From Candidatus Moraniibacteriota bacterium (lineage in GTDB: Bacteria; Patescibacteriota; Minisyncoccia; Moranbacterales; UBA1568), in the NCBI GenBank assembly GCA_016699975.1, contig CP064994.1, positions 193,222-257,221 of the forward strand: a stretch of DNA of 64,000 bases, given 5' to 3'. The notes under the pieces were generated by a model. The model made no database searches. It was not told the DNA's origin and was given only the letters and a program-made list of their open reading frames with translations. Both the position numbers and the translations under genes were made by a program. Below, piece by piece: positions 28,930 through 60,744 of this stretch. The number at the start of each line of letters is the position of its first letter. Positions within the stretch are counted from its first letter, which is position 1.

Positions 28930-29001
28930 TCCGGCGTAGCTCAGCGGTAGAGCGAGGGACTGTTAATCCCCAGGTCGCAGGTTCGAATCCTGCCGCCGGA
29001 G
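28930..29001 (+). tRNA. tRNA-Asn (anticodon GTT)
   Basis: Acceptor TCCGGCG/CGCCGGA, D-arm GCTC/GAGC, anticodon loop CTGTTAA, T-arm GCAGGTTCGAATCCTGC, G73. Confidence 0.85.
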
Positions 29002-29115
29002 CATCATAGGACTCTGAGCATATTCTGCCCAAAGTTTTGTTTTATCAGAGCCAAAACCGAGAGGTTCTAGGTGAAACCGTCTTTTTATTTTATATAAGCC
29101 ACTAATAATAAAAAA

Positions 29116-30652: not shown

Positions 30653-30711
30653 ATTAGATAAAATCCCACTTAGGGATTTTATTGTGTCCAAAAATTTACT
30701 AAAATATAAAT

Positions 30712-31172
30712 ATGTGGAATAAAGTAACAAAATTTATACCAGAAAATTTTAGAATTGTTGCCACATTGGTTACATTTTCAATTATAACCTTCATAAATGA
30801 GGGGTCTGGGGGTAGTTTTTCAATGAATAAGTTTACAGATAGTGGATTTGCGGGTTTTTCTTTGGAAAATGCTCTCAAAGGAACATTGATGACATACCTC
30901 TATCTTTTTGAAGGGTTATCTATTCTTGGAGTGCTTATTGTTATTATGTGGCGCGTGATCGCTGGATATTGGATTTGGAATATGAAGGATCACACAAAAA
31001 TGTCAGAAAACAAAGCGAAGAAGAGTTTACAGAAAACAATACTAAGGCATTCAATTACATTATAAAACTCGCATTGATTGCGGGGTTGGTAACTGGCGTA
31101 TTTGTAATTATAATCGGATTTGCACTCAAGTTCTATATTCATTATAAAACTGGCAGTTGGTGGTTAGAATAA
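30712..31172 (+). CDS. Hypothetical small membrane protein, frame changed near 30950
   Basis: ORFs 30712..31065 and 30948..31172 overlap; both halves are hydrophobic. Confidence 0.4.
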
Positions 31173-31410
31173 ATTATTGAAATGCAAAAGTGTTCAAAAA
31201 AAGTTCTAAATCTGCCCTGAATTTGAGCGATTTCAGTTCTGAATATAGCAAATTGGCGGAGCCAAACTCGGATTAGGAGCAGCGAAATCTGCTTCTTTTC
31301 CTTTTACAGGGTCTTGAGCTGCATGTTCGAGTGTACCTATTTTTTTCAATTTCAATGAACATGAAAGCGAGACCGTCTTTGATGATGGAGAACGGTTCTT
31401 TCGCGTTTGT

Positions 31411-31475
31411 CCACTAGGCGGAGCAGCCAAAACAAGGCTTGAGCGGGCCTTGTTTTTGTATATCCTCTGTTGGAG
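31411..31475 (+). repeat. Hairpin repeat family, copy A (truncated, abutting IS30 copy 2)
   Basis: ccactaggcGGAGCAGccAAAACAAGGCttgagcggGCCTTGTTTTtgtatatcctctgttggag; about 90% identical to copy C. Confidence 0.8.
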
Positions 31476-32561
31476 GGTGAGTTCAAGAATTTAATGCCCC
31501 TTTTCCAGTACCCTGGCAAAAACTTCATTCGGCGTCAAATAGTTAAGCGCTTTCCTCGGTCGATTGTTGAGTTTGTCCTGAACTGACCGAACTTCTTTTT
31601 GGGAAATTTTATCAAACGGGCATTTCTTCGGAAAATACTCTCGTAACAATCCATTCAAGTTTTCCACACCTCCTTTCTGCCAACTTTTGTAGGTATCGCA
31701 GAAGTAGGAAGGAAGAGAAAGTTTTGTTTCGTTTCTCCGTGCAAAACATTCTCCGTTCCATTATCTCTCGTAATACTTCTCCTCAATTGCTGCGGAAGCC
31801 GAGAGAAATGTCCCTGTATCGCTCGTTCGCTTTCGACCGCTGTTTTGTTTGGAACTTTCTTTAATCGGCATAGCTTCATTTTTCGCTCGTACTGTACCGA
31901 GAGTACTGACTTCTGTTTTGAGAATATCACGGAATCGGTTTCCCAGTCTCCAAAGTGTGTACGCTTGGTAATGACCGCGGGTCTTTCGTGAATGGGTATT
32001 CTATCCGGAATCGTCTCTTTTCGCGGTTTTCGAGAGAACTTTGGTCGTCTCCGCTTCTGTTTTCGTCGCAGATGTTTGTACCATCCGCCGACCCTTCCTT
32101 CTCCGCGGTAAATGTAATCATAGATGGATTCGTAACTTATCGAGGTATCCGTACACGAGGAAAGATTTTTCGGAGGAGATGTTTTCAACCGGCCGGCTAT
32201 CTGCTCCGGTGAATGTCCCTTCAGGAGTTCGCTTTCGACAAACTTTTTCAGTTTCTCGTTTTGCCATTTTCCAGTTTTCTTTTGTTGGTATTTTTCTTTC
32301 GTCTTTCCGCATACGCTTCAGCTCGGATGGCAACATAGGGAAGGTGCGGACTCGAATTTCTTCGTATCTCTCGCTTGATGACGGAGTAATCTCTTCCAAG
32401 TTTCTCCGCGATCCATGTTTTCTTTTTCTTCATGCGGAGAAAGCTTTCGATTCGCTCTCGTTCAAAGAAGGTTATGGACGTTCCTTTTGGCATATTCATA
32501 GCGTTTTTGGAAGTTAACGCCGGAGTATACCAGAAAAGGGGCTTCGGGGTTTGAATTCACC
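31476..32561 (-). mobile_element. IS30-family insertion sequence, copy 2 (inverted, 1086 bp); no target duplication; transposase degraded
   Basis: Near-identical to copy 1 with the same terminal repeats; the fragments (ORFs 32248..32499, 32118..32399, 31655..32188) carry HTH MPKGTSITFFERERIESF...REIRRN and the core ...GDWETDSVIF...SITRDNGTEN; flanks gag / gtg do not match. Confidence 0.85.
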
Positions 32562-33614
32562 GTGATTTATTTACCATCATTTAAAAAGCCTGTAACAATC
32601 AAGCCAGTAGCTCTAAATGAACTTGGAGAACAGCTAAGTATTTCTATTCCAGATGTGAGGGTGCCAAAGATTGAATTAGAAGAAAAAGAGCAAGAAAAGA
32701 TTGTAAACGATACGATTAAGTTTGTGTTTGGTACCTCACCTAAAGATGCTCTATCTAAAAGTGAATTTGAGAAGAGGTGTTTGATTTTTGCAAGGCATAT
32801 CGGAGAAAAATGGGAAGAGATACTGACAAGTTCTCATCATCCTATCGAGGAAAAACTTCCTGAAGTTATAGCAAAGATGGAAGCGGAGAGTTTTCGACTA
32901 CTGGTTCTATCTGGAGTTTTAGCGATCTATGGTACCGAGGAGCAAATAAAAGTGTTTGTAGAAACTCTTTCAGAGGTTTTGAAGTTAGCAAAAGGTAAAT
33001 CAGGGATTGTTGCAATTATTGCGGTTCCTGAGGTTATTGTTCTTTTGACGATATATATATTTACCTTGCTCGCATTAGCAACTCGAGACTTTAGTCGGTT
33101 AAAGGTATTTACCAATACCAGAGTCTATGGTTGGGTATACGATGGTGAGCCACCAAAAATCCTAGCCCTGAATCACGTTCACTACACCAGCGCATTAACC
33201 GGACATGCCGATAAAGTTGCGGACTTTGTTAGATCTAGACTTGAATCTATGAAGTGGTTAAAGTCTCTACACCCAAGACTGGAGAATATTCAAGATGTCC
33301 AAATACAAGCCAGTTTTCTTCTTAGTATGCTTATGCGCCACAATGATATTAGGACTTGGCCTGATTTTGGAAGATGGTACGCTCAAAGAATCACCTCTAT
33401 CGTAGAAAGGATAAAATATGATGATCAATATGTTAAACAAATAGCCAGTCTTTTTGATGTTCAATCCAAGGATTTGAGGTTGAAATTTTCGGAGTATCTT
33501 ACCGACTTTCGAAAGGCTGGGATGGCTCAGTATCACTGGGAATCCATCAGTCAGAAAGCACTCTTTACACCCGAGGAACTTACAAAGATGAAAGAGGAGA
33601 ACTTAGGAGATTAA
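32562..33614 (+). CDS. Hypothetical protein (350 aa, AT-rich), probably 5'-truncated by IS30 copy 2
   Basis: The ORF opens exactly at the IS boundary; first ATG is about 107 codons in; internal TM segment; no recognised domain. Confidence 0.45.
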   Translation: MIYLPSFKKPVTIKPVALNELGEQLSISIPDVRVPKIELEEKEQEKIVNDTIKFVFGTSPKDALSKSEFEKRCLIFARHIGEKWEEILTSSHHPIEEKLPEVIAKMEAESFRLLVLSGVLAIYGTEEQIKVFVETLSEVLKLAKGKSGIVAIIAVPEVIVLLTIYIFTLLALATRDFSRLKVFTNTRVYGWVYDGEPPKILALNHVHYTSALTGHADKVADFVRSRLESMKWLKSLHPRLENIQDVQIQASFLLSMLMRHNDIRTWPDFGRWYAQRITSIVERIKYDDQYVKQIASLFDVQSKDLRLKFSEYLTDFRKAGMAQYHWESISQKALFTPEELTKMKEENLGD

Positions 33615-33909
33615 GACATAATTTATGTGGTCTTTGGATTTTACTTTTGGAAAAACGAGCTAAAATTGAAACAAAAAATCGGTTAGGTAGGCGTCTAAAC
33701 TAGTCTAATTTCATGGACAACGCTTTCGTTTTTGGAGATGGAGGGGTAATTACTGGAGAAGATTGTTGGGCGAGTGAGAGGAAATAGTGAGGGATTTTAA
33801 CCGCGAGGATTTTGGGGCGACCCTTGCATAATATCAAGCTCCATGTTATCGTCCGCTGTCTGGTTCCTTGACAATTCATGTTCAACAATTCACCTATCGG
33901 AGGTGCAAA

Positions 33910-34741
33910 GTGGCTACTGTAGAAAAGAGTATTCGTCCCATGATATTCAGTGCTCCGGCTATTGGGGAGCGTGAAACGGTTTTTCCCTTGGCTCGAGAGC
34001 TGGTTCGTATTCAAGTTCCGGAAGCACTGATCAAAGATATCCTCGAAGCCTGCGATGGTCAGAGAACTTTGGATATGGTGCTGGAATTGCTTGAATCTAA
34101 GTGGGATCGCGATACATTAGAGAGCTTCTTGCGGCACTTGCACGAGAAAGGGGTGCTGTATGATAGCTCAAACTTGAGCGGTTTCGTTTGGCCGTTCGTT
34201 TCAAATCCGAGTCACTTCTCAAAAGCGGTGACTGATCTTCAGGTAGCTGAGATGGTTGAGCGAGCGTGCTTGAGGCAACGGAATCTTCCATCAAATATGT
34301 TTTTCACGGTGAAGGAGTATTATCCTTTCCAACGATTGGTTTCCAATCGGAAATCGGAACGATCCTTTTCAGGGAAAGTGATTAGCATGGAGCGTGTTGT
34401 TCAAATGCTGTGGGCGGGATATGGAGTTATTGCCGAATCTCAATCAGGAGTGGGCTTTGACCGTCATACCGTTCCGTCGGCGGGAGCATTGTATCCGTGG
34501 CGTGGTGATTGTGAATGGGTCGTTTAGTGTAGGGGAAGAGAAATATGGCAACAGGTCGCTCCTCTATGTTCCGCTTGAAGCGGGGCATGTCGCGCAGAAC
34601 ATTCTTTTGGAAGCGACAGAGTGCGGTGTTGCGACGGTGGAGATTGGCGGATTTCTCGAAGAGCCGATGCGAGACGCATTACGATTGCCGACGGAATTCG
34701 TTCCGTTGACCACCGTGGTGTTTGGCGATTCTGCCGGTGGT
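33910..34741 (+). CDS. SagB-type dehydrogenase (McbC-like nitroreductase-fold, TOMM 'B' protein), frame changed near 34508-34515
   Basis: SERSFSGKVIS...TVPSAGALYP hallmark motif, followed in the next frame by VVIVNGSFSVGEEKYGNRSLLYVPLEAGHVAQNILLEA...GGFLEEP; GGAGG RBS then GTG at 33910. Confidence 0.8.
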
Positions 34742-35970
34742 GGGGATCATGGACATCACCTGCCATGCGGATTCGAAGTTTGGTGGGCATATCCAAAAGC
34801 AAATGGATACGTGTTGCCGTTCAATCTCGTGTTTGCTCGATTGGCAAAAGCTTCCGGTGGAAGCGAAGAGTGGTCATGCGGGCGTTCTTCCGATCCTTTC
34901 GTGGCGTATGAAAAAGCGACTGCGGAAGTGCGGGAGTGGGCGGCATGCAGTCTTCCGCATAACCTTGTGAAGTCGAATATCGGATCGCTTGCGAGTGCGG
35001 TAGCGCCGGACAGCATAGTGGCGTTTCATCCCGATCAGTACGCTTCGCCGAGTTTTCCGTTCTTTCCCTTGAACAAGAAGGGGTCTACGAATGGAAGGAA
35101 GCCACAGACGTGGTAACGTGTGAAATACATTTCATTCTGGCTGACTGTATCTACTTCCCCTACTATCCGGAGTATCCGCGCTGTGCAAGTGCGAATTCTT
35201 CCGGAGCGGCTGCGTATCCCACAAGGATTGGCGCAGTTCGGCGCGGGGTGTTGGAGTTGATCGAGCGAGATGCCTTCATGATCGTGTGGCTCAACCGTTT
35301 GGTGATGCCAACGATCGCTGGTGGTAGTTTTCCGGATGATGTTCGGTGTCGTATTCGCAACTTGGAAGAAGCGGGTTTTGAAGTGATCATCAAGGATGCG
35401 ACACTTGATTTGGCTCCGGTTGTGTTGGTATTCGCGCAGAGCGAAGACTTGCATTACACAACGTGCTCCGCTTGCTGTTCTTTCAATGTTGACAGGGCGC
35501 TGAATCATGCTTTACTGGAGGTCGAAGCGGCGGTGTATTGTCGTTTGGCATTCGGCTCTTCAGAGCCGATGCTTCCCGAAGATGTGCGGATGACGCAGGA
35601 TCACGGGAAGCTGTACGAGCAAGAAGCTTTTTTCCGACAAGCGGATTTTCTGAAAGAGTCTCGGCTCTTGAAAGACTTGAGTGAAGTCGGCGAGGGCGCT
35701 TGCTTTCACTGGGAAATGCTGTTGGTGCGTATCGCGGAACAAGGAAGGAACGTTCTGGTGGTCGATCTTGAAAATCCGCATGTGGACGGTATTCAGTCAA
35801 ATCTGTTCATAGTGAAAACTTTTGTGACAGGATTGGTGCCGATAAGCTTCGGGTACAGAGAAGAGCCGTGCGGGATGCAAAGAATCTACGAAGTCCCTGT
35901 GACTTTTGGATTCCGTTCCGACCCGATTCGTTACGACGAACTCAACAGGTTCCCGCATCTTTACACATAG
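34742..35970 (+). CDS. YcaO cyclodehydratase domain protein (TOMM 'D' protein), frame changed near 35045-35075; contiguous with the SagB reading frame with no intervening stop
   Basis: N-part SCGRSSDPFVAYEKATAEVREWAACS; core SSGAAAYPTRIGAVRRGVLELIERDAFMIVWLNRL (YcaO ExxERD motif). Confidence 0.8.
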
Positions 35971-35993
35971 CTTGCGAAAGGGGGTGATGATCC

Positions 35994-36158
35994 ATGCAAG
36001 CAGGAAAAGCCGCGAAGGGGCAATCCTTCGAATGGTGCGTCACGGTTGAACCGCGGCGTTCGGGTAGAGGGCACGAAGCACTCTCGAGCAAAGGGAGCAG
36101 CAGCTCCGGTTCGTGTCAGCGTTCCAACAGCTGTCGGGCAAGCGCGATTCAACGCTAA
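35994..36158 (+). CDS. Candidate TOMM/RiPP precursor peptide (54 aa): MQAGKAAKGQSFEWCVTVEPRRSGRGHEALSSKGSSSSGSCQRSNSCRASAIQR
   Basis: Not in the ORF track because it is under 60 aa; RBS aaggggg 9 nt upstream; Ser/Cys/Gly-rich C-terminal core; immediately downstream of YcaO and followed by two strong hairpins. Confidence 0.5.
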   Translation: MQAGKAAKGQSFEWCVTVEPRRSGRGHEALSSKGSSSSGSCQRSNSCRASAIQR

Positions 36159-36174
36159 TCGCAACGGTTCGGCA

Positions 36175-36232
36175 GACTAAAGCGCTTTAGTCTCAACAAG
36201 GGGTCTTGGTCATGATGATCACGACCCCCCTT
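36175..36232. terminator. Tandem hairpins (20-bp perfect palindrome agactaaagcgctttagtct, then ggggtc...gacccc + T-run) between the convergent precursor and peptidase genes
   Basis: Read directly from the sequence. Confidence 0.7.
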
Positions 36233-37078
36233 TCATTTCCCAAATTCTGATTTTTCGTAAATTTTTTTTGGTGTGAGCTGGACGATATCGTTCCATGATG
36301 TGTCAGGATGTCGCTTTCGATACGCTTCAACCATTTGGTAGCCGATCGCATAGCCTGCCCAGAGAGGGTATTCTTTTCCTTCCAAGAAGACAGGATAGTA
36401 CATCTTTGTATTGCGAAACCGCTTCTTGAATTTTTCATACCACACGAGTGCTTCTTTGAACGGGAGGGCTTGCGAGGGCATATGTGCCTTCACGCCGAAG
36501 AGAAAGGAAACAAAACTTTCCGCTACTCCCTCAAAGACGAGGTCGTCCAAAAGATTTTTTCTCTCGTAGTGGTTATCCATTACCGTGTGCATGAACTCGT
36601 GACAGATCGTTTCGGTGAGCGCTTCTTTCCATCGCTCAGTTTCCTGCGGTGAAACATACAAGAGCAGGGTATTTTTGTAAGGAGTATAGCCCGAGACGCC
36701 ACCCATTTTGTCTTTGACGAAGGTGCTAAAGGTTGGGAAAAGAAATATATTGGTTGGTGAGGTGGAAACGTTTTTGTGACAAAGTTGGAGAGCTTCTTTT
36801 ATGGTGCGTAGCAATTCTGATTCCGAAATACTGAACGCTTGATGTTGAGTATTGGCATTCTCGAAGTCGGGAATATTATACGTGAGATTATCGTGGAGGT
36901 GTTTCTTTTTGGTGAATCCGGCGTAACCGATTGCTTTTGAGTAGGGAACTTCTTTGACGAAATTTCCAATGAGAGTCTCGTTATCGAACGCGGGATCGTA
37001 TTTTGTGAAAAGTTGAAGCGTTCCAATGTTACCCGATTTTCCCTTTTTCTGTATGTCAGTAATGGTGTGTGCTTGCAT
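36233..37078 (-). CDS. Putative zinc metallopeptidase (HExxH; DUF2268-like)
   Basis: TICHEFMHTV motif; 281 aa; AT-rich. Confidence 0.6.
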   Translation of the reverse strand: MQAHTITDIQKKGKSGNIGTLQLFTKYDPAFDNETLIGNFVKEVPYSKAIGYAGFTKKKHLHDNLTYNIPDFENANTQHQAFSISESELLRTIKEALQLCHKNVSTSPTNIFLFPTFSTFVKDKMGGVSGYTPYKNTLLLYVSPQETERWKEALTETICHEFMHTVMDNHYERKNLLDDLVFEGVAESFVSFLFGVKAHMPSQALPFKEALVWYEKFKKRFRNTKMYYPVFLEGKEYPLWAGYAIGYQMVEAYRKRHPDTSWNDIVQLTPKKIYEKSEFGK

Positions 37079-37182
37079 AGGGTTTTGGCAATAGATGGTT
37101 TATCCTTATAATTTCTTGAGGAAAGACTAGCACTTTTTCGGAGAAGTGTATATCGAAGAAGTCTTCTTCGGAACACATTTTT

Positions 37183-38865
37183 CTAGAAAGCAAAGATGAG
37201 AAGCTTACTTATTTGAGCCAAAGTTCCTTCCGGATACGGTATCGCTTGCTCCCATTCAAAGGTTCGGAAGCTGTCCCGCCAAGCGAGCACTAGTGAAGAA
37301 CTGGAGTATGAAAGCTCCAGTTTTTCTTTATCTGAAGGGTTTTTCAGAGGTTCGAACCTTTGAGAAATAGAATTTACCTGGAATGAGAACCCTTGAAGCT
37401 TTAAAATCGGATTTGTGGCTTCTATCAAGAACTTTCTTTCTTTGATAAAGAGGTTCGAACCTAGGCCATTTATGATGAGTTTTTTGGTTTCCTCATTTCC
37501 TTCCTGAAATCTATCTTTAATATCTTCAGCAATACTTAAAGTTTTCTCTAATCGATCAATCCATGTTTCTGAGGCCTTCTCAGAATCAGCTAGTATCTTT
37601 TTGAGTCTATCCCTGTCTTGTAAGATGGCTTCTCGCTTAGGCGTAAAAACCGCTTCAGGGATCTCGTTACTTAGTCGGAGCTCCAGTAACCTATCCAGTT
37701 TATCTTCCACGCTCTTTAAGGCTCGTTTCTGGCTTTCTAGAAGTCTTTGCTGCTCTTCAATGCTTGATGCCTCTTTGCTCCTAAAATAGCGTACAGCCCA
37801 CTCCTTAAAGCTTGCAGGGATGCTTATGGATTCAAGTAAACTGCCAATTTGGCTTTCTAGTTCCTTTTCCTCAATTACCTTTTTAGGGCAATCGGGATTC
37901 TTCTTCCCCGTACAGTGATAGTAAGTATAAAAGTGAACATTGCCATTCTTATTTCTCTTCACTTTATTTTCAGCCGTGATCATGGCGCCACAGCTACCGC
38001 ATTGAATAGTTCCTCTATAGGTGAAATCGTATTTATCTGGCCGAGTAGTGCCTCTCTTTCCTAGTATCGTTTGAATCCTTAAGAACTCTGCTTTGGTGAT
38101 TATGGGAACATGCTTCCCTGAATACCAGTTCCCGCTTCCTAGCGGATACTCAAACTCTCCGTAATAAAAAGGATTATTCAACATTGCATACCATGTACTA
38201 TTAGCGATAGGACTTCCGTTTCGATTTCTCAATCCCCATTCTTTCGTGGCTAATTGATATGCCTTCATTGGTGTGTATTCACCAGAAGCTATCCCCTTAA
38301 ACGCTTTCCTGATCACATCGAAACGTTCAGGGTCGGTAAGCACCTCCTTGTCTCCTTTGAGTTTCATCGGATTAGCGGCATACCCATAAGGGGCTACTCC
38401 AGGGAACCAGCCTCGCTCTGCCTTAGCCCGAAGTCCTCTTTTGGTATCTGTACTTAAGTCTCGGATGAACTGGTTAGCCATTCCCAGCTCCACATTCATA
38501 AGGAGTACATTGTCAGAAGGGTAGTAATCTCGGCCTTGGGTCTTTATGTTTGTGATAAAGCCCTCCTGCAACAAGTGGCTAATCATTCCGCCATCAAGGG
38601 CGTTACGAGTGAGACGGTTAATTTTCCAACAAAGAATACCATCGGCCTCTCTTTTTTGGATTTTGCTAATCATTTGATTGAAGACAGGTCTTCCAATCGC
38701 TTTTGCAGACATGGATTCAGTAAGTACCTCAATCACGTTTAGATCATACTGAGTAGCTATCTTTTGAAGCTCATGAACCTGAGATTCAATAGAGGCCATT
38801 TGCCTATCCTCGGATTCGCTCGACTTACGAGCGTAAAGAATGTATTTATTTGCTTTCTCATACAT
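37183..38865 (-). CDS. Large serine recombinase (phage-integrase type)
   Basis: N-terminal resolvase domain YARKSSESEDRQMASIESQ...R; recombinase domain; zinc ribbon CGSCGAM...YYHC; coiled-coil C-terminal region. Confidence 0.88.
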   Translation of the reverse strand: MYEKANKYILYARKSSESEDRQMASIESQVHELQKIATQYDLNVIEVLTESMSAKAIGRPVFNQMISKIQKREADGILCWKINRLTRNALDGGMISHLLQEGFITNIKTQGRDYYPSDNVLLMNVELGMANQFIRDLSTDTKRGLRAKAERGWFPGVAPYGYAANPMKLKGDKEVLTDPERFDVIRKAFKGIASGEYTPMKAYQLATKEWGLRNRNGSPIANSTWYAMLNNPFYYGEFEYPLGSGNWYSGKHVPIITKAEFLRIQTILGKRGTTRPDKYDFTYRGTIQCGSCGAMITAENKVKRNKNGNVHFYTYYHCTGKKNPDCPKKVIEEKELESQIGSLLESISIPASFKEWAVRYFRSKEASSIEEQQRLLESQKRALKSVEDKLDRLLELRLSNEIPEAVFTPKREAILQDRDRLKKILADSEKASETWIDRLEKTLSIAEDIKDRFQEGNEETKKLIINGLGSNLFIKERKFLIEATNPILKLQGFSFQVNSISQRFEPLKNPSDKEKLELSYSSSSLVLAWRDSFRTFEWEQAIPYPEGTLAQISKLLIFAF

Positions 38866-38923
38866 AAGCTAACCAATTATGTATTACAGATCCAGAATAA
38901 TCTTTTCAGTCAAAAACTGCTAT

Positions 38924-39430
38924 TTATTCAATCAGGCCTCTTTCTCTTCGGGATTTTAAGATCATCTCACCCAGCTTAGTAAAATCGAATGTATTAACTA
39001 GCTCCAGCTTCTTTTCCATTGGTTTAGGCTCAAAAATGCCTAATCTTTCCATAAAGCGGTCGTAATCATCATAGTCTCCCTCCTCAACCTTCTTTCTTCC
39101 AAGACGCATAGCCTCTAAAATTCCAAACCCATCTGCTTCTAAGACTGCATTATTCAAAAGTTGAAGTTTTTTGTAATTTTGAGAGCCAATTTTTGCGGCT
39201 GTTGCATAATCGTCTGTATCGTAAACAGCGAGGGCGCACCTTACTCGATTGCCAAAGTAGGCCTTATTCGATTTATCTAGAAAAAGGGATGTCCAAAGTT
39301 TAAATTTTTCAGATTGCGCCTGCATAAGTTTAATAGGGGAGATAGTTTTGGCTTGTTCCTTGATCTTTAAAAGTTCTCTCTTGGCCTCGTTCTGGTTCTT
39401 TACCCCGTCGATTTTTTTAGGATTAGACAT
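38924..39430 (-). CDS. Hypothetical protein
   Basis: 168-aa ORF co-oriented with the recombinase. Confidence 0.45.
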   Translation of the reverse strand: MSNPKKIDGVKNQNEAKRELLKIKEQAKTISPIKLMQAQSEKFKLWTSLFLDKSNKAYFGNRVRCALAVYDTDDYATAAKIGSQNYKKLQLLNNAVLEADGFGILEAMRLGRKKVEEGDYDDYDRFMERLGIFEPKPMEKKLELVNTFDFTKLGEMILKSRRERGLIE

Positions 39431-39767
39431 ATTAGTTAACTTCTCGGACTTTATAAGTTTCTCTAAGAAGATTTAAAAATTGCTCAGTATACCTGGCAGC
39501 CTCTACTTCTGATAGCTTCATTCCAAATTCCTTTAGGAATAAGGCCTGAATTTCTTCTATTTCTTTAGGTGTAAACATAGAACTGTAGGCACTTACCTAC
39601 AGTCTAGAGTTCTTTCTTTTAAGTTCAGAGCACATTATGTGTACTACATATCTTGCCGTTTTTTGGCTTCACGAGAGACAATTCTTCTAATTTCTCCCAT
39701 ATAGAACTTCTCATTAAAATACTTTTTTACCAACTCTCGAATTTCAACTTCTGGTAAATGACGGTTT

Positions 39768-40097
39768 TCATAAATAAATCTGTTTCGCTCCTGTTTTTTT
39801 TAAGTCTTTTTTCTTTGTCTTTCCAAGCTTTTCTTTTTTTGAATCCTTTTTATCCAATTTATCTTCAACCGTTTTCCAGTTAGCTTTTATAAAATCAACT
39901 ACGTCTCTCTGCGTGGCAAATGGACTAATGCGAATAATGACGGGGTAGTATTTATTTTCACCCTTTAAATGGTTGAAGAAAGATTCATTCGTTTTTTTAT
40001 TCCCTGGTTGGTAATCTTCCCATTCTTCTTCTGTGTCAATGATCTTACAAACTCCCTCACTGGCAAAAAGATAGACTGCGAACTCAATATCATACAA
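39768..40097 (-). CDS. Hypothetical protein
   Basis: 109-aa ORF; Lys-rich C-terminus. Confidence 0.4.
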   Translation of the reverse strand: MYDIEFAVYLFASEGVCKIIDTEEEWEDYQPGNKKTNESFFNHLKGENKYYPVIIRISPFATQRDVVDFIKANWKTVEDKLDKKDSKKEKLGKTKKKDLKKTGAKQIYL

Positions 40098-40163
40098 ATC
40101 GAATAGAGCAAATAACCGGAGAGTAATGCTAATACTTTCAAAGTTCCTTATGGGTATTCTCTC

Positions 40164-40496
40164 TTATATTGGCCGTATTCTGTCTCGGAATTCTTTAATA
40201 AGTGAGTAACCTTCAGTGGGAAGGTAAAAGGGATGCGCTAATATCTCCTTTAAAATCATTGATTCCAACTCTAATCCCTCTTCTGGTATATCGAAATTTT
40301 TTCTCAACAAGGAAATCTGCTTTAACACCTCTTCTTTAACAAGAAGATCATTAAGGAAATAAGCCGTTTTGAGTGCTGCCTGTGTAACCCTTATCCCTCT
40401 TTTTTGACAGTCCTGTATGTAGGGTTGGAGAAGCTCCCTTTGGCGCTTTCTCTTCTCGTGAGGTTCTAAGACAGCTTCTTTTCCTGATCTCTTCAT
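40164..40496 (-). CDS. Hypothetical protein
   Basis: 110-aa ORF. Confidence 0.4.
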   Translation of the reverse strand: MKRSGKEAVLEPHEKRKRQRELLQPYIQDCQKRGIRVTQAALKTAYFLNDLLVKEEVLKQISLLRKNFDIPEEGLELESMILKEILAHPFYLPTEGYSLIKEFRDRIRPI

Positions 40497-40561
40497 ACGC
40501 TTTTACCCTTAGTATGAGCCAAAGTTTGCCTTCAATAAAGCCCGGGGTTATCATTGATAAC

Positions 40562-40695
40562 GGTTAGCTACTACAAGGGTTTTTGCGGAGAAAGATGTCT
40601 TTGCATCTTTTTTCCTACTTGTTGCCCGAAAGGGGCGCCGACGCCGCAAGTAGGTTCCGCAAGGATCCCGAAAGTAGCTAACCAAGTCGGCGTCC
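40562..40695 (+). ncRNA. Candidate structured RNA or cis-regulatory element (nested inverted repeats, GNRA-type hairpin, terminator-like 3' end)
   Basis: 11-bp closing helix GGTTAGCTACT/AGTAGCTAACC; inner helices TGCGGA/TCCGCA and CCTACTTG/CAAGTAGG; gccc-gaaa-gggc hairpin; gggcgccgac can pair alternatively with gtcggcgtcc followed by tttttgttttg. Confidence 0.4.
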
Positions 40696-40730
40696 TTTTT
40701 GTTTTGATAATTTTTTAATATAAGCGATTT

Positions 40731-40979
40731 ATGGTCATCGTTGCTGCCGTTATAATTACAGCCGTAGTGGTTTCTCTTTGGAGTAAGTATGCTTACACAA
40801 AAGGGAACAAGAATACCTATGTGGCTTTTGAGGCTCTAATTAATGAACTGAATAACATGGCCAAAGAGAATGGACATGTAGATGTTTACAGTTATTGGGT
40901 AGAAACTAAAGGTAAAGAATATGCCGATAAAGCAAAAGAAAACTTAGATAGTACCCTCAAGTTTCTTAGGGAAGGATAG
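40731..40979 (+). CDS. Hypothetical small membrane protein
   Basis: 82-aa ORF with N-terminal TM. Confidence 0.4.
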   Translation: MVIVAAVIITAVVVSLWSKYAYTKGNKNTYVAFEALINELNNMAKENGHVDVYSYWVETKGKEYADKAKENLDSTLKFLREG

Positions 40980-40984
40980 TTTGT

Positions 40985-41170
40985 ATGATCTCTACAAACG
41001 AAGCTAGAAGTCTCCTACCGAATGGCGCCTCCTACTCCGATCAAGAAGTTGAGAAGATCCTTGAAGACCTTTATTTTCTAGGGAACCTTTCGTTGAAGGC
41101 GTACCTTGATGAGCGTTCTAGTTCTCACGAACTTTTATTAAAAAGCCTTCGAAATCCTCCTGCAAGTTAA
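40985..41170 (+). CDS. Hypothetical small protein
   Basis: 61-aa ORF with RBS. Confidence 0.3.
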   Translation: MISTNEARSLLPNGASYSDQEVEKILEDLYFLGNLSLKAYLDERSSSHELLLKSLRNPPAS

Positions 41171-44100
41171 ACTCGAATCTTTCGAAAACATGTATAAGTA
41201 TCCTTTCCATGAGGTAGTTTTCTTGATTTTTTTGGCTACCTTCTTTGCTAAGCCAATCAGGTGGATTTTGTAAGAACTTTTTCATTAGTTCTGATTCTGG
41301 AAGAAATTCTTGAACATTTATTTTAAAGATATCAATTTTAAGTGATTCACTGTCCGTAGCCTCTAAGGGAGAGTATTGAGTTAAGATCCCCAGCCTATTT
41401 TTATTGAGAACAAGAATATAGGAATCTCTTTTATTATCGTAAAGCTCGTAAACGGGTATATCCTTATCTTTAACCTTATAAAAGCCGTTTATTTCCTTAG
41501 GAAGACTGCCTTCAGCGATGTTTAAACGCCATTTAGGAGTGTATTTTTCATTCTGGTTTGCTTCAAAGAAGGATCTCCAGCTGGCATTATTTACTGCAAT
41601 AATAATTGCCTCACCAGTGGTGGAAATATCCGCTATTTTTTGATCCAAGTCAGCAGCACTTATGACTGCGGAGCGATCCTTAATTTTCTTTAACAGATCC
41701 GTGTTTTCTCCTATTACCATGTTCCTGCCAAACTCAAATCCTTCTTCCATTCCTAAAACATGAACGTGCCAGGATACGGAATCATCGAAGAAACCGGCTT
41801 TATCAAATAAAGTGTTTACTCCTAGACTTTTGAGATCACCTGAATATGGTTCGTTGCTCTTATCTTGAAACAGACTGTAGTGGCGGAGAATACTTCGAAG
41901 TTGATCATTATCGTAAAAATCTTTCACTACGCTTTTTTTAAAAATCGCTACCTTTTTCGGGGAAATTCTTAATCTTCTTTTTTTATCTATTTCTTCATTT
42001 TCTTGGCTTTCTTTAGCACGTACTAGAAGATCCTTGAAGCTATCTACTTTCTCTAATGCTTTCCCATCCAGTAAAAAGCTCCAGTTACTAGGATTGGCTT
42101 TCATGTCTTCTAGAGTACCCAATAAACTTCTTGTCCCTTCAGCAAGGTATGCCAAATCTCTACTGTGAGGCAGGTTAATGCCCGCTATTTCATCGGGAGT
42201 TTTCTCCTTTAAGATTTCTAATGAATATACTGCATAAAGCCTTTCAAGTTTTGAAAGAATATCAATCGTATGTGCTTCACCTTCTTCTTGTCCTTCCATT
42301 TCCCAGTTATCCCAGCCCCAGAAGCTTTCTACTGCAAAGTCATGAACAACGGAGAAGAGCTTAGTAAAATCATTAATTTCGCTAGGAAGTTTTCTTTTTA
42401 CTTCATCATAAAATTCTTTCACCTTTTCGTTATCTTTGTCTTGTTCTAACTCGTATAAAATCCAGCTAGCTACACCAAAGAACATCTCCTTTCTCTTTCC
42501 ATCAAGATAATCGTAAAGTTTCTCATCCTCATCAGAATCAGATCGGCCAGAATCCCGAATATCTTTGAATAACTTTGAGGTAACAAGCAGAAACTTTTGA
42601 AAGTTCAAAGTATCTCTATTGCTAAATGAAGCTTTTAATAAGCTTTGAAAAATCTTCAATATTTCCTCTGCAAAAAGTTTTATCTCTTCCTTTGAGTAGT
42701 TCTTATCTTCGAGCTTTTCTTCCAAAGGATGTCTTGATAGGTCATTGAGATATCTCCATATCCTGTCGAAAATGAAGGCTGCTCTCGTCTCATCATTTTT
42801 TCTTTTGGCCTCTATAGCAATGTGGTAAAAGCGTAGGGGATAATATGCAAACTCTTGAAATATTAGGTGGTCTTTATGGTCAATCGCCTCTTGAAGAAGC
42901 CGGATGGGTAAGTACATTACGTAGCGATTAATATCCTTACTTACAGAACTTAACCCATTTTCAATAACTTCGCTTATGTCTTTTGAGATCCAGGAAACTG
43001 ACTTAAAGCCCCCAAACGCTATTTCAAACCTCATATCGCTAGCTTGCTTTGCAGAAAATCCTCCTCCGTGCTGTTCCAAATAAGAGTAAAACTCCTTGAT
43101 TAACTCGATGTAGAAATCGGTGATTTCTCCCAACTCCTTAGTCTTCTGTTGCTGAATAAATTCATAACAACGAAGTTTAATCTCAGAAATCTCATTTTGG
43201 ATCTCATCATAGTCAGTGCTATTTCGTTTGATCACGAACAGCTTATTGGCCATTTCTGAGACTTTTGCTTTTTCTGACGGCGATTTAATTAAATCCTTGT
43301 GTATCCATAGGAGATTTCCTTCGCCTTTCTCAAGATATGATAAGTATCGTGGAACAATCCAGAAATAGGGATCTCTTCCTTTGTATTCCTCATCAGTGTT
43401 TGAAACCTCATCTGAGTTTTTGAGAAGAGCGCTGTAGTCTTCAGGTAATCTTTTCTGAAATCTTAAAAGAAAACTATTTAGCTTATTTAGTTTAAAATCG
43501 TAGAATGTACCAGTTTTAAGTGTTTTTATTGGAATAAATCTATTTTTATTCACAGGAGAAAAAGGGCTGACTTCAACTACCTTTTTGAACCTTTTAAGTT
43601 TTTTGTTGAGGACGCCATCTCCTATTAACTGGGTTACTTCGTTATCTAATAAATTAAGAAACCGGATCTTAATAGCATGTAAAAACTCCTTCCTTTCTTT
43701 TTTAAAGCTAAAATTATTCGAAAATAGGTTTAAAGTCTGAAATAGAGAGTAGATTGTTCCCGCAGCTATAAGCACCAAAGGAATAACCCCGAAGAAATTA
43801 ATGTTTCCCCACCAAATGTAGTACAGGAAGTAAAGAACCTCAGCTATTATTAAAAGTGGGAAAAATTTACTCCTTTTCAATAAAATTCTTCCCCTGTAAG
43901 GATTCTCGTTAGCTATCTCTTGGGCAATGAAAAATGCCAATCCAATTAAAACTGCGCCTATTCCTGCATGGATCGTGATTAAGTTTTGAAAATGGTTTTC
44001 TTCTCGTAATATCTCGGAGAGGTTGCTGAATTTGTTTTCGATCCAATAAGATAGATTTTCACAGCATATATTATTGAACTGATGAAGAATTCCATTAATC

Positions 44101-44369
44101 CAATTGGAATGGGAGAGCACAAAGAAAAAGGCCAATACCAAGACAACTGCAAGAATTTCCCACCCTGATAACCATAAAAGTGTAAGCTTTGAGTTTATAA
44201 GTTCCTTATGATCTTTTCTTAACTTTTTCTCTTCTTTGACTAAGCTAAGTAAGGAAGGTTCTCTTTCCCAAGAAAAGACTTTTAGGATCGCTTTTAAAAC
44301 TTGTACTGTCTTCAATTCTTCTTTCATTGTCGTGTAGTCAAACAAGGGGTAATCAGGGCATTTTCTCAA
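41118..44369 (-). CDS. Large hypothetical protein (1083 aa) with an N-terminal 4-5 TM region and a long soluble domain
   Basis: Uninterrupted 3.25-kb ORF in the AT-rich island; no motif I can assign. Confidence 0.7.
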   Translation of the reverse strand: MRKCPDYPLFDYTTMKEELKTVQVLKAILKVFSWEREPSLLSLVKEEKKLRKDHKELINSKLTLLWLSGWEILAVVLVLAFFFVLSHSNWINGILHQFNNICCENLSYWIENKFSNLSEILREENHFQNLITIHAGIGAVLIGLAFFIAQEIANENPYRGRILLKRSKFFPLLIIAEVLYFLYYIWWGNINFFGVIPLVLIAAGTIYSLFQTLNLFSNNFSFKKERKEFLHAIKIRFLNLLDNEVTQLIGDGVLNKKLKRFKKVVEVSPFSPVNKNRFIPIKTLKTGTFYDFKLNKLNSFLLRFQKRLPEDYSALLKNSDEVSNTDEEYKGRDPYFWIVPRYLSYLEKGEGNLLWIHKDLIKSPSEKAKVSEMANKLFVIKRNSTDYDEIQNEISEIKLRCYEFIQQQKTKELGEITDFYIELIKEFYSYLEQHGGGFSAKQASDMRFEIAFGGFKSVSWISKDISEVIENGLSSVSKDINRYVMYLPIRLLQEAIDHKDHLIFQEFAYYPLRFYHIAIEAKRKNDETRAAFIFDRIWRYLNDLSRHPLEEKLEDKNYSKEEIKLFAEEILKIFQSLLKASFSNRDTLNFQKFLLVTSKLFKDIRDSGRSDSDEDEKLYDYLDGKRKEMFFGVASWILYELEQDKDNEKVKEFYDEVKRKLPSEINDFTKLFSVVHDFAVESFWGWDNWEMEGQEEGEAHTIDILSKLERLYAVYSLEILKEKTPDEIAGINLPHSRDLAYLAEGTRSLLGTLEDMKANPSNWSFLLDGKALEKVDSFKDLLVRAKESQENEEIDKKRRLRISPKKVAIFKKSVVKDFYDNDQLRSILRHYSLFQDKSNEPYSGDLKSLGVNTLFDKAGFFDDSVSWHVHVLGMEEGFEFGRNMVIGENTDLLKKIKDRSAVISAADLDQKIADISTTGEAIIIAVNNASWRSFFEANQNEKYTPKWRLNIAEGSLPKEINGFYKVKDKDIPVYELYDNKRDSYILVLNKNRLGILTQYSPLEATDSESLKIDIFKINVQEFLPESELMKKFLQNPPDWLSKEGSQKNQENYLMERILIHVFERFEFNLQEDFEGFLIKVREN

Positions 44370-44455
44370 AATGAGGATCTATTTACAAGGTACACCCTAA
44401 TTAGGTGAAAATACCATTAACTCTGGGGAGACAGAGGCTATTTTCCTTTTCAGAC

Positions 44456-44548
44456 AGGTTCGAACTTCCTCCAGTCCGCGGAGCAGGCAAAACGAGGCTG
44501 AACAGCGCCTTGTTTTTTGTTACCCCTTGTCGGAGTTCGAACCTCTTA
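44456..44548 (+). repeat. Hairpin repeat family, copy B
   Basis: GGTTCGAACttcctccagtccgcGGAGCAGgcAAAACgAGGCtgaacagcGCCTTGTTTTttgttaccccttgtcggaGTTCGAACctc. Confidence 0.8.
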
Positions 44549-44635
44549 ATTAAATTGTATGATACACAATAATAAATTATTGACAAACGATAAGTAATAG
44601 AATAGGATAAAGATGTAAATATTAGAGGATTTTTT

Positions 44636-45121
44636 ATGAAAAAAAGTTCAATACTATTTCTCCAGGGGGTGATTATACTAATTGGTATCGTCAGTTTCGT
44701 TCTGATGCTTTGGGAGCCTCATCTGGAGGGAAGGAACGTAAATGCTACGCTATTTGAAATCTATTTTAATGATCCTTTCTTAGCCTATGCATATGCTGCC
44801 TCAATTGCTTTTTTTGTAGCACTTTATCAAGCATTCAAATTATTAGGATATGCAGATAAAAACAAAATATTTTCCCAATCTGCTGTGAAGTCTTTAAGAA
44901 ATATAAAATATTGCGCTTTGATCCTGGTTGCATTTGTTATCGGAGCCGAAGGTTACTTATTTCTTGTTGTACGAAAAGTGGAAGAAGATATTGCAGGGGG
45001 CGTTATGATGGGTCTGGTTATGGTCTTTGTCTCTGTAGTTGTAGCCACGGCAGCAGCGGTATTTGAAAAACTTCTGCAGAGTGCTGTCGATATGAAGTCA
45101 GAGAATGAATTAACTATATAG
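44636..45121 (+). CDS. DUF2975-like membrane protein
   Basis: 4 TM helices; lies upstream of and overlaps a YozG-like HTH gene, the conserved DUF2975-HTH pairing. Confidence 0.55.
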   Translation: MKKSSILFLQGVIILIGIVSFVLMLWEPHLEGRNVNATLFEIYFNDPFLAYAYAASIAFFVALYQAFKLLGYADKNKIFSQSAVKSLRNIKYCALILVAFVIGAEGYLFLVVRKVEEDIAGGVMMGLVMVFVSVVVATAAAVFEKLLQSAVDMKSENELTI

Positions 45122-45126
45122 CGTGT

Positions 45127-45330
45127 ATGTCTATCGTAATCAACATTGACGTAATGCTCGCTAGAAGAAAAATGAGTGTAACTGAGCTTGCAGAAAGAGT
45201 GGGGATAACCATCGCCAATATTTCTGTGTTGAAAAATGGCAAGGCTCGTGCTATTCGATTCTCGACACTGGAAGCAATTTGCGCTGCTTTAGACTGTCAG
45301 CCTGGAGATATTTTGGAGTACAAGAAATAA
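45127..45330 (+). CDS. XRE-family (Cro/C1-type, YozG-like) HTH transcriptional regulator
   Basis: MSVTELAERVGITIANISVLKNGKARAIRFSTLEAICAALDCQPGDIL. Confidence 0.8.
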   Translation: MSIVINIDVMLARRKMSVTELAERVGITIANISVLKNGKARAIRFSTLEAICAALDCQPGDILEYKK

Positions 45331-45391
45331 TTGATCGATAAAGCAGAAAGATGATTAAGATTTACGAAGAAAGAGGAATTAAGCAGCTTCA

Positions 45392-45516
45392 GAGGTTCGA
45401 ACACTTTCCATTTATCCCTCCACCCCTCTATAGGACAAGGTTCGAACTTCATCCAACAGGTGGAGCAGCTAAAACAAGGCTTGAGCAGGCCTTGTTTTTG
45501 TATATCCTCTATTGGA
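45392..45516 (+). repeat. Hairpin repeat family, copy C (two GGTTCGAAC motifs plus the hairpin)
   Basis: aGGTTCGAACac...cctccacccctctataggacaaGGTTCGAACttcatccaacaggtGGAGCAGctAAAACAAGGCttgagcagGCCTTGTTTTtgtatatcctctattggag. Confidence 0.8.
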
Positions 45517-45593
45517 GTTTGGATTTGGTATAGACAAAACTTTTAAATATGCGATTATTATAAATCGTTCTTTTCCATCCGTACCTATATTTA

Positions 45594-46229
45594 TTGATAT
45601 TGGGACGGGACTTTCCAGTTCATTTCAACAGAGAGGAATCAATAGTGAAAGAACTCGCTTTCGGATTGAATATCTTCGGCGCCGTTCTTGGTTCGCTTGC
45701 TGCTTGCCTGTACGCCCTACGTGTCTGGCAGAAGAAGGAGCGAGCCAACCTCGCCACTTGGTCAATCGTTCTCGTCCTTGATGTGGCTGGGCTCTACCTG
45801 GCCTACGCTACTGGCAATAAGGAACCTTACATCCAGGCTGGCTGGTGTATCGCGGTGCTACTCATCTTCATTGCGACATGGAAGCGTAAGGGTGACTGGC
45901 AGTGGACGAAAACCGAGTCTACGGTGCTCGCCATTTGTGTGCTGTCGGTCGTTGTTTGGCTCACAAGTCAGGCTGTTCTTATTTCCTTGCTCGGCTATTT
46001 AACAGCCGCTTTTCTCTCGGCTTGGCCGCAGGCCAAGGATTACCTCCGGCATCCGGAGGTGGCACGGAAGAGTGCCTGGGTGTGGCAAGTCAGCATCGTC
46101 GCTATCTTGTTTCCACTTATTGCCAAGCTCGTCGAGGGTAAGTACGATGTCGAACACACGCTGATCTACTGTGCGCTGATCGGTCTCAATGTGATCATGG
46201 CTGCTCTCTGCATGCGCCGACCTCCGTAG
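45594..46229 (+). CDS. Hypothetical polytopic membrane protein (higher GC); the true start may be the GTG near 45654
   Basis: Multiple hydrophobic helices. Confidence 0.55.
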   Translation: MILGRDFPVHFNREESIVKELAFGLNIFGAVLGSLAACLYALRVWQKKERANLATWSIVLVLDVAGLYLAYATGNKEPYIQAGWCIAVLLIFIATWKRKGDWQWTKTESTVLAICVLSVVVWLTSQAVLISLLGYLTAAFLSAWPQAKDYLRHPEVARKSAWVWQVSIVAILFPLIAKLVEGKYDVEHTLIYCALIGLNVIMAALCMRRPP

Positions 46230-46337
46230 CGGTTCGAAGGATAGCAACGGAAGTTTTTTGCGCCATGAGGCTGCTTATCTTAACGGAAGGCAGCCTTTTT
46301 CTTTTCTTAAACATCAGGACAGGTTTTTATAAAACAG

Positions 46338-46430
46338 TTTCTCACTTCCTTCAACAGTCGGAGCTAAGAAAATAGAAGCTCTTATAAGCCTCTATTTTTG
46401 TTACCCCGGACTGGTGTTCGAATCTCTTAT
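46338..46430 (+). repeat. Hairpin repeat family, copy D (diverged)
   Basis: cttccttcaacagtcGGAGCtaagAAAAtAgAaGCtcttataaGCcTCTaTTTTtgttaccccggactggtGTTCGAAtctc. Confidence 0.65.
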
Positions 46431-46431
46431 G

Positions 46432-60027: not shown

Positions 60028-60073
60028 ATATTATTATAATGTTTATATTAAAAATAAGTTGAAATTTGAGCAT

Positions 60074-60736: not shown

Positions 60737-60744
60737 AGCGAAGT

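Follow-up and report, generated by a model that had tools for sequence, protein, structure and literature searches.

What kind of element are the hairpin-rich repeats that lie among the small genes of this Candidatus Moraniibacteriota bacterium, and how did they come to stand where they do? The 64-kb stretch analyzed here (contig CP064994.1, positions 193,222 to 257,221; hereafter the window) had received a first-pass annotation that recognized four repeat copies, which we call units A to D, and that offered recombination sites of a cassette array, a miniature inverted-repeat transposable element (MITE), a small-RNA family and remnants of tRNA 3' ends as explanations. Comparing the window with related contigs and loci (L-numbers, 524 kb in total) and with their proteins (P-numbers), we found that the units belong to a 17.5-kb array of low GC that starts at the 3' tip of a tRNA-Asn gene. 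The units are very probably junctions of site-specific recombination at that tip, and we consider it likely that the array as a whole records serial integration at tRNA-Asn of the type carried out by large serine recombinases (LSRs), with the cassettes that lack an LSR perhaps moved in trans. Throughout, tRNAs were sought with ARAGORN and Rfam, protein domains with Pfam and homologues of the units with nhmmer.

Repeat units and the tip of tRNA-Asn

Sequence checks and repeat finding placed all four copies where the first-pass annotation had put them and sorted them into two repeat families. The first comprised A (31410-31475), B (44470-44535, 74% identical to A) and C (45452-45517, 91% identical to A, close to the estimate of about 90% made at first pass), and the second comprised the right halves of B (44507-44548) and D (46388-46429), which grouped apart at 76% identity, in keeping with the variant that had been described as common to these two. 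A junction pattern of GGAGC, 4 bases, AAAAY, 18-26 bases and TTTTTGT (GGAGCNNNNAAAAYN{18,26}TTTTTGT) matched exactly A to D in the window and had 0 matches in 100 shuffles. The hairpin with a 10-bp stem and an 8-nt loop was described correctly for A, B and C, and D carries the same hairpin with compensatory changes. Covariation, which the annotation had proposed to check, revealed a stem kept by double changes: in 16 units drawn from five contigs, the 10 stem pairs are paired in 93% of cells and 13 stem cells, in three pairs, are changed on both sides, values reached in 0 of 500 shuffles, with pairing dropping to 29-63% in slid controls. A run of 5-6 T's directly follows the stem, and the hairpin and T-run together have the predicted shape of an intrinsic terminator whose stem is kept by compensatory change. 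The flanking short inverted motifs are also real, such that each unit folds into one long imperfect hairpin (whole-unit fold z = -2.7 to -4.0 for A-C) with the 10-bp, 8-nt-loop hairpin at its apex and with ends of the form GGTTCGAAC ... GTTCGAACC. No copy scored as a tRNA or as a member of an Rfam family by ARAGORN and Rfam, in agreement with the earlier failure to fold any of them into a tRNA, and Rfam at permissive thresholds returned nothing credible for the units.

Beyond these four copies, the motif GTTCGAAC occurs 6 times in the 64 kb, all within 37350-45447, against an expectation of 2.0 (6 or more in 1 of 100 shuffles), and unit A is without an intact GGTTCGAA. The 12-bp palindrome AGGTTCGAACCT, reported earlier from the 3' tail of the recombinase gene, was found at 37348-37359 and has a second copy at 37451-37462. 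The sequence around it, unit E, had been taken as merely related to the repeats; its presence stood, but its status did not, as E is a diverged but complete fifth junction, belonging to a second class (37261-37358, plus the palindrome at 37452-37461). A sixth junction of the array lies directly at tRNA-Asn (28999-29136).

Each unit is a hybrid in which the left arm of the left-hand segment and the right arm of the right-hand segment meet at G-GAGC(A), which is at once the last bases of tRNA-Asn and the breakpoint. The right arms hold the bases that complete the tRNA, an intrinsic-terminator hairpin and then a GTTCGAACC-type palindrome at a fixed offset, followed in most cassettes by a promoter-like element; the promoter-like sequence TGGTATAAT stands in the right arms of L180 and L034. 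The left arms mimic the tRNA T-loop (GGTTCGAA) at a distance of 16 nt from GAGC, 5 bp farther than in the tRNA. The arrangement GGTTCGAA-11 nt-GAGCA was present in 10 of 10 tRNA-Asn genes and the 16-nt spacing in 9 of 10 non-tRNA left arms (B, C, D, E and units in L034, L180, L179 and L151). Among 24 distinct nhmmer hits in the 524 kb, 8 had 11 nt (two of these being weak or duplicate) and 14 had 16 nt, the outliers being the degenerate unit A (19 nt) and the minus-strand L034 u2 (15 nt; 16 nt on the plus strand).

In serine integrases, the zinc-ribbon-domain (ZD) motif occupies positions 16-24 of the attP half-site and lies 5 bp nearer the centre in attB (PMC3783163), so that the 11/16-nt geometry shows the same +5 bp relation as attP and attB, which makes the left arms putative attP-type mimics of the tRNA T-arm. 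The spacing also ruled out one candidate reading, that of E's left arm as a decayed tRNA stub; at 16 nt it is a P-type arm. More broadly, because the 5-nt "insertion" is constant across lineages, we reject a decayed pseudo-tRNA, and of the earlier suggestion that the copies are tRNA remnants left by repeated integrations, the repeated integration at a tRNA holds whereas the remnants do not, the left arms having 16 nt rather than 11 nt.

The LSR-class junctions follow a layout of their own. Past GAGCA come the hairpin, GGTTCGAACC at exactly +59 nt and a second copy at +151 to +162, and this layout is constant even where the intervening sequence is unrelated. The start of GTTCGAACC lies at +60 in LSR arms versus +49/50 in cassette arms, about one helical turn apart, and a second T-loop-like motif lies about 45 nt upstream of the cassette left arms.

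Related loci tie the shared bases to the tRNA itself. L034 is syntenic with the window, with a NUDIX gene upstream of the tRNA (protein 62% identical), and its tRNA 3' end ...GGTTCGAATCCTACCGTCGGAGCA runs directly into sequence like that of unit B (85% over 88 nt); GGAGCA is thus tRNA-Asn's own 3' tip, and the hairpin with its T-run would terminate the tRNA. In relatives, NUDIX, sigma-70 and DnaG genes lie upstream of the tRNA. The tip is a hot spot: among contigs whose NUDIX protein and tRNA-Asn are identical, four sequences with no relation to one another follow directly on ...CGCCGGAGC(A). The L034 contig (CAZLQC010000011.1) is titled 'uncultured Bdellovibrionales bacterium'; given that its NUDIX-tRNA-Asn synteny, intron and units are as in the Moraniibacteriota loci, it may be mis-binned or mislabelled.

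Large serine recombinases and modular cassettes

The LSR of the window (P0001) matched PF00239 (E=3.7e-18), PF07508 and PF13408, is 100% identical to an NCBI Moraniibacteriota protein and shares 62% identity with P0003 as far as residue 532. Unit E and neighbouring DNA encode the tail of the LSR, in which the palindromes are read as GSNL and RFEP; in L152 both palindromes lie past the LSR stop codon and are therefore conserved as DNA. Nine LSR genes including the window's, homologues at 47-62% identity, end at or overlap the same type of junction: seven abut an intact or intron-containing tRNA-Asn (L148, L150, L152, L163, L164, L166 and L179), and two abut an internal junction (the window and L151). 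The gene is convergent with tRNA-Asn and ends at or in its 3' end in L148, L152-154, L163, L164, L166-168 and L179, and in homologous elements the LSR sits at the tRNA-proximal end. The family is widespread in Patescibacteria. The first-pass annotation had left the enzyme that acts on the repeats unnamed; it had noticed the serine recombinase, and this LSR is the likely enzyme, with a catalytic role that we infer from sequence.

The LSR relatives found in IMG/VR were only 36-43% identical; none adjoins tRNA-Asn and one adjoins tRNA-Gln. In this last case (L160:4026-5515, on an IMG/VR contig), the LSR gene (protein 39% identical) stops 95 nt short of the 3' end of a tRNA-Gln gene that converges on it, and related serine recombinases may use other tRNA tips. 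Two scans of viral contigs found no intact attP or right arm of the LSR element there, and the right-arm pattern gave chance matches or nothing in metagenome contigs and viral contigs. The cargo of LSR elements is of defence type. In the window it includes the 1083-aa open reading frame (ORF) at 41118-44369, with a weak ABC-3C CTD8 match; cargo loci elsewhere are L148:3534-7325, L151:1-2616, L152:661-3262, L164:1-6540 and L166:328-6960, and the cargo listed comprises PIN-TPR-GreABC, a KAP NTPase with QatB, DpnII restriction-modification, a giant NACHT protein and type I restriction-modification. Apart from the LSR, tblastx recovered no cargo common to the window array and the other loci, the DUF2975 cassette being recovered only by a later search.

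This cassette links the window to a second array. The window's DUF2975 protein has a 96%-identical homologue on L182, a contig that starts within a true tRNA-Asn 3' end (11-nt spacing) and then shows 93% DNA identity over 903 nt to window 44457-45359, such that the DUF2975-XRE cassette stands directly at the tRNA in L182, whereas in the window it stands behind the 16-nt arm of the LSR element. In L182, six units separate five recombinase-less segments of one to three genes (DUF2975, XRE and a 95-aa protein; a 248-aa protein; a polysaccharide deacetylase; DnaJ; and Arr), and a giant Kelch-repeat gene follows. In L169, from a different species (68% nt identity in the Kelch gene), the Kelch gene directly follows tRNA-Asn, so that the L182 array sits between tRNA-Asn and the gene that stands next to it in L169. 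Arms reassort between loci as well: window unit C and L182 u2 have a common left arm and are different from GGAGC on, the right arm of L182 u2 matches window D, and a second version of the DUF2975 cassette (P0226, 82% identity; Pacebacteria and others) has one right arm with four different left arms. Three units lie behind tRNA-Asn in L180, a complete genome, and two in L034. Exchange at a 5-nt core between dissimilar arms indicates site-specific, not homologous, recombination. The cassette array with recombination sites, one of the explanations offered at first pass, is thereby borne out: the units part modular segments, and the variation between genomes that the annotation had proposed to look for was found, the same segment having other neighbours elsewhere with the break at GGAGC.

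Among the genes carried by these cassettes, the one at L182:4256-4945 is a homologue of the Arr-ms rifampin ADP-ribosyltransferase, and at L189:2528-5255 the DUF2975 cassette adjoins a pair of SMODS and SAVED genes of a cyclic-oligonucleotide-based antiphage signalling system (CBASS). The DUF2975 protein (44636-45121) is 70-82% identical to proteins labelled Pacebacteria, Niyogibacteria, Komeilibacteria, Campbellbacteria, Uhrbacteria and Acidobacteria/Blastocatellia, and a very recent cross-phylum spread of the cassette is suggested by these comparisons.

The tRNA-Asn genes of relatives have features of their own. In six loci (Table 1), group I introns (Rfam RF00028, 47-78 bits) interrupt the anticodon loop, and tRNAs split in this way escape ARAGORN; the intron-containing tRNA-Asn of L150, L163, L166 and L179 were confirmed with Rfam, and several of the introns hold an internal ORF. 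Group I introns in the tRNA-Asn of Patescibacteria have already been described (PMC13011429). At L164:11690-12060, two partial 5' copies of tRNA-Asn, each interrupted by the palindrome CTCCGCCAGCTGGCGGAG and with a small ORF between them, lie upstream of the intact tRNA-Asn.

Proposed serial insertion weighed against its rivals

To account for these junctions, we propose that LSRs would catalyze the insertions, with the T-arm and acceptor of the tRNA in the role of the attB-type half-site and the +5-shifted mimic in that of the attP type. We infer a crossover near the GG of CC-GG-AGCA (CCGGAGCA), which would explain why every right arm starts with GAGC, given that it has to complete the tRNA. 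Each insertion would fall between the tRNA and whatever followed it, and older segments would thus be pushed outwards. Behind tRNA-Asn the window would then present five segments: first a decayed LSR element, next another decayed segment, then the intact 7.2-kb LSR element, the DUF2975-XRE cassette and the membrane-protein cassette, with A, E, B, C and D as their joints. The terminators of the right arms would insulate neighbouring segments, and the copy adjoining the tRNA would terminate its transcript. Three joints are predicted (a slash marks the joint): ...CAAGGTTCGAACTTCATCCAACAGGTG/GAGCAGGCAAAACGAGGCTGAACAGC... for a circular cassette 4, ...ACAGGTTCGAACTTCCTCCAGTCCGCG/GAGCACTAGTGAAGAACTGGAG... 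for a circular LSR element and, as an example of a deletion, tRNA ...CTGCCGCCG/GAGCAGGCAAAAC... That it is an LSR which mobilizes the LSR-less cassettes in trans is a part of the model to which we give slightly less than even weight.

Several points weigh against this model. The case comes from sequence comparison. Classical serine integrases do not recombine attP with attL, so that repeated insertion at a tRNA/right-arm site needs a right half-site that does not discriminate. In the 25 bp past the core on the right, the length of an ordinary half-site, no mirrored GGTTCGAA is present; the palindrome stands instead at +49/50 or +59, and in a reconstructed site of B left arm and E right arm only a CTCCAGT/ACTGGAG repeat was seen. 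The left arm of unit A is degenerate, the LSR-type arms of L179 and L173 are without the +59 motif, and the L182 and L180 arrays are without an LSR within the DNA compared. At L184:5822-5850, the array starts with a bare 26-nt 3' fragment of tRNA-Asn (GGTGGTTCGAATCCAGCCGTCGGAGC, 11-nt spacing) that has no tRNA body or intron upstream and is not foreseen by the model. The genome scan was swamped by chance matches and gave no usable copy number for the source genome: GGAGCAGNNAAAACN{18,26}TTTTTGT hit at least 118 loci in the genome collection, of which almost all arose by chance or were tRNA-plus-terminator sites unrelated to the family, and L034 was the only true family member among the matches listed.

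The alternatives that we weighed each take up some of the same observations. Ordinary tyrosine-integrase islands, with the repeats as displaced, decayed 3' fragments of tRNA-Asn, would fit an array of low GC at a tRNA 3' end that has GGAGCA and GGTTCGAA in common with the tRNA, and tandem arrays parted by partial tRNAs are well known. We nonetheless regard this as highly unlikely, because none of the 20 ORFs scanned across 29116-47028 had a Phage_integrase (tyrosine recombinase) match in Pfam, the junctions are accompanied by a serine recombinase, identity to the tRNA extends to 5-6 nt and the T-loop motif only, so that these are not true 3' copies, and many lineages keep a spacer of 16 nt in place of the 11 nt of the tRNA, as expected of conserved design and not of decay. 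That the units are long imperfect palindromes with a terminator-like apex, in copies 74-91% identical, could also be expected of a dispersed MITE- or REPIN-like palindrome or of a small-RNA gene family clustered by chance. Such a family is extremely improbable here: nhmmer --max detected no further copy in the remaining 46 kb of the window, target-site duplications and Rfam matches are absent, left and right halves reassort independently, and no unit match fell in the core genes flanking arrays in the 524 kb of related loci. Wherever a contig extends to a tRNA-Asn gene or fragment, its array begins there; L186, L188, L189 and L191 stop short of one. The MITE and small-RNA readings offered at first pass were thus not upheld.

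Conserved terminators and promoter-like sequences within the units, together with 60-90 nt of similarity that could support homologous exchange, would also be in line with terminator-plus-promoter modules that travel with transferred genes and are shuffled by homologous recombination, with no dedicated recombinase. However, the breakpoints fall at one 5-nt core (GGAGC) between dissimilar arms, which is too short and too precise for such exchange, and the 11/16-nt geometry and the anchoring at the tRNA would be left unexplained, such that we rate this as quite unlikely. A further alternative retains site-specific cassettes and has the LSR-less ones moved by a non-LSR enzyme, for example an unsampled chromosomal recombinase, and the absence of an LSR near the L182 and L180 arrays and the difference between the right arms of cassettes and of LSR elements speak for it. 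It is unlikely in our view, given that cassette left arms have the left-arm architecture of LSR elements (e.g., L191 CTTCCTCCATCGCTCG vs window B CTTCCTCCAGTCCGCG), that both classes have a common core and an in-phase palindrome, and that no other recombinase was seen adjoining any array.

Layout of the array and comparison with known systems

Coordinates of the array and of introns in related loci are collected in Table 1. GC drops from about 0.49 to 0.36 immediately past tRNA-Asn and stays low until about 45 kb; a second GC trough (0.365) at window 60001-61000 lies far from the array. At the tRNA-proximal junction, J0, the minus strand keeps what is left of the C-terminal tail of an LSR (38% identity, E=4e-5, in a tblastn search of 29136-28978 with residues 472-532 of P0003), a decayed GGTTCtAGG stands at 29063-29071, exactly 59 nt past GAGCA, and TCATAGGA (TCATaGGA) corresponds to L164 TCATTGGA. 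Pfam found no intact recombinase in segment 1 and no recombinase in segment 2. The insertion sequence (IS) transposase of segment 1 (DDE_Tnp_4 and HTH_Tnp_4, 29651-30595) sits in the decayed segment that adjoins tRNA-Asn and may have destroyed that element's LSR gene. Segment 2 holds a DUF2268 protease gene (36233-37078, minus strand) and YcaO cyclodehydratase and nitroreductase-family genes (33868-35970), which are broken into three overlapping ORFs and look like a decayed thiazole/oxazole-peptide cluster. Unit E lies antisense to the LSR ORF, inside its 3' end. Segment 4 carries a promoter-like TTGACA-17-TAGGAT at 44580-44608 and an extra T-loop-like motif at 45394-45402, and segment 5 carries GGTTCGAAG at 46231-46239 and a hairpin with a T-run at about 46268-46296 that was spotted by eye and is absent from the terminator scan list. 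The right arm of unit D is either the original downstream flank or the end of an older element.

Table 1. Features of the tRNA-Asn array in the window, in array order, and group I introns in related loci.
Feature	Position	Strand	Details	Basis
tRNA-Asn(GTT)	28930..29002	+	array anchor	ARAGORN; Rfam tRNA 71.8 bits
tRNA-Asn T-loop motif and tip	28980-28987; 28999-29003	+	GGTTCGAA, 11-nt spacer, GAGCA	sequence, spacing table
Junction J0	28999..29136	+	tRNA tip joined to decayed LSR-type element end	
Segment 1	29004..31420		GC 0.36; 119-aa ORF, IS transposase, 117-aa ORF	Pfam, GC profile
Unit A	31396..31475	+	degenerate left arm; GGAGCA 31420-31425; hairpin 31429-31456; T-run; TGTATATCCTCTGTTGGAG	
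Segment 2	31421..37284		ORFs without assignment, broken YcaO and nitroreductase genes, DUF2268	Pfam
Large serine recombinase	37183..38865	-	560 aa	Pfam Resolvase + Recombinase + Zn_ribbon_recom
Unit E, LSR-class junction	37261..37461	+		same layout in L148, L151, L152, L163, L164, L166
Unit E left arm, core and hairpin	37261-37268; 37285-37289; 37295-37326		GGTTCGGA, 16-nt spacer; GAGCA; hairpin	
Unit E palindromes	37349-37358; 37452-37461		GGTTCGAACC at +59 and +162	
Segment 3, LSR element	37285..44480		about 7.2 kb; LSR, small ORFs, 1083-aa ORF (41118-44369, minus)	
Unit B	44457..44543	+	left arm GGTTCGAA 44457-44464, 16-nt spacer (P arm of the LSR element)	
Unit B core and right arm	44480-44485; 44489-44516; 44535-44543		GGAGCA; hairpin; TTGTTACCCC; GTTCGAACC (last position)	
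Segment 4, cassette	44481..45462	+	B right arm, DUF2975 44636-45121, XRE/HTH_26 45127-45330, C left arm	
Unit C	45439..45534	+	GGTTCGAA 45439-45446, 16-nt spacer; GGAGCA 45462-45467; hairpin 45471-45498	
Unit C right arm			TGTATATCCTCTATTGGAG, then TGGTATAGA (-10-like)	
Segment 5, cassette	45463..46360	+	C right arm, 211-aa membrane protein 45594-46229, D left arm	
Unit D	46337..46425	+	degenerate motif GTTTCTCA 46337-46344, 16-nt spacer; GGAGCT 46360-46365	
Unit D right arm	46369-46398; 46416-46424		hairpin (compensatory changes); TTGTTACCCCGGACTGGTG; GTTCGAATC (last position)	
Group I introns	L034:1434-1722; L150:5100-5373; L163:11626-11831; L166:11621-11913; L179:12527-12792; L180:11518-11820			

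Site-specific integrative arrays are known in kind; the one here is apparently built with a serine recombinase at a tRNA tip, in bacteria of the candidate phyla radiation (CPR). Within the library searched, literature on Patescibacteria or CPR together with serine recombinases, prophages, tRNA-linked islands or cassettes yielded no description of such arrays, which is not proof of absence. Serine integrases were believed to avoid tRNA genes, and here a whole CPR-widespread clade appears dedicated to the tRNA-Asn tip; it would be a source of new serine integrases whose natural target is defined and conserved, and the predicted half-sites can be read, so that they can be synthesized and tested directly. 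The arrays show the gain and shuffling of accessory genes in the ultra-small genomes of Patescibacteria (about 1 Mb), the cargo of note being defence systems, an Arr homologue and a DUF2975-XRE pair 70-82% identical across phyla.

More tentatively, Patescibacteria may carry a serine-recombinase counterpart of the integron, with a regenerated tRNA-Asn site, LSRs acting in trans and a left half-site that alone sets the roles. If so, insertion would regenerate the tRNA-Asn site and arrays would grow without limit; LSRs would capture and excise small self-contained cassettes with no recombinase of their own (terminator, promoter, one or more genes and a half-site that mimics the T-arm) and exchange them between phyla; and 11 versus 16 nt alone would tell target from donor. 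With only the left half-site discriminating, integration and excision could be one reaction with no directionality factor. Mobilization in trans, if true, would constitute a second, independently evolved cassette-capture system beside integrons.

The closest analogue is the composite island of the staphylococcal cassette chromosome (SCC), with its Ccr LSRs at the 3' end of rlmH/orfX. In SCC, an LSR inserts at the 3' end of one conserved gene, and tandem arrays, recombinase-less pseudo-elements and att-type repeats are found. The Moraniibacteriota array is alike in its LSR, its single target-gene 3' end and its tandem arrangement that includes recombinase-less elements, a likeness of layout; it differs in the tRNA target, the Patescibacteria host, the segments of about 1 kb with a single gene and their own terminator and promoter, and the T-arm-mimic arms. 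Phage-type serine integrases (A118/LI, Bxb1, phiC31) offer a second point of comparison, with the same domain architecture, a gene adjoining the att site, a 5-bp motif shift between half-sites and very short junction identity. Unlike them, the arrays show the shift on the left half-site only, carry extra palindromes at +49/59 and about +160, and require repeated insertion at a hybrid site. Use of tRNA genes by serine integrases was previously unreported when it was described for 4.9% of such elements, with experimental proof called for (Mageeney et al. 2020, PMC7192596).

Like integrons, the arrays are one-sided runs of small, mostly single-gene cassettes with imperfect palindromic sites and a fixed anchor, small cassettes being parted by palindromic sites at B, C and D in the window and by the six units around five segments in L182. 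Neither IntI nor another tyrosine recombinase gave a Pfam match in the same 20 ORFs of 29116-47028. The attC consensus of integrons is RYYYAAC/GTTRRRY; the units do not carry it, the C at position 4 of GTTCGAA breaking GTTRRRY. Unlike integrons, too, the arrays are anchored at a tRNA 3' end and their cassettes bring their own terminators and promoter-like elements. With serial islands anchored at tRNAs, such as the tycheposons of Prochlorococcus, they have in common insertion at a tRNA, older elements pushed outwards, degenerate elements and att remnants, but those islands use tyrosine recombinases and true partial tRNAs, whereas the arrays described here pair +5-shifted mimics with a serine recombinase.

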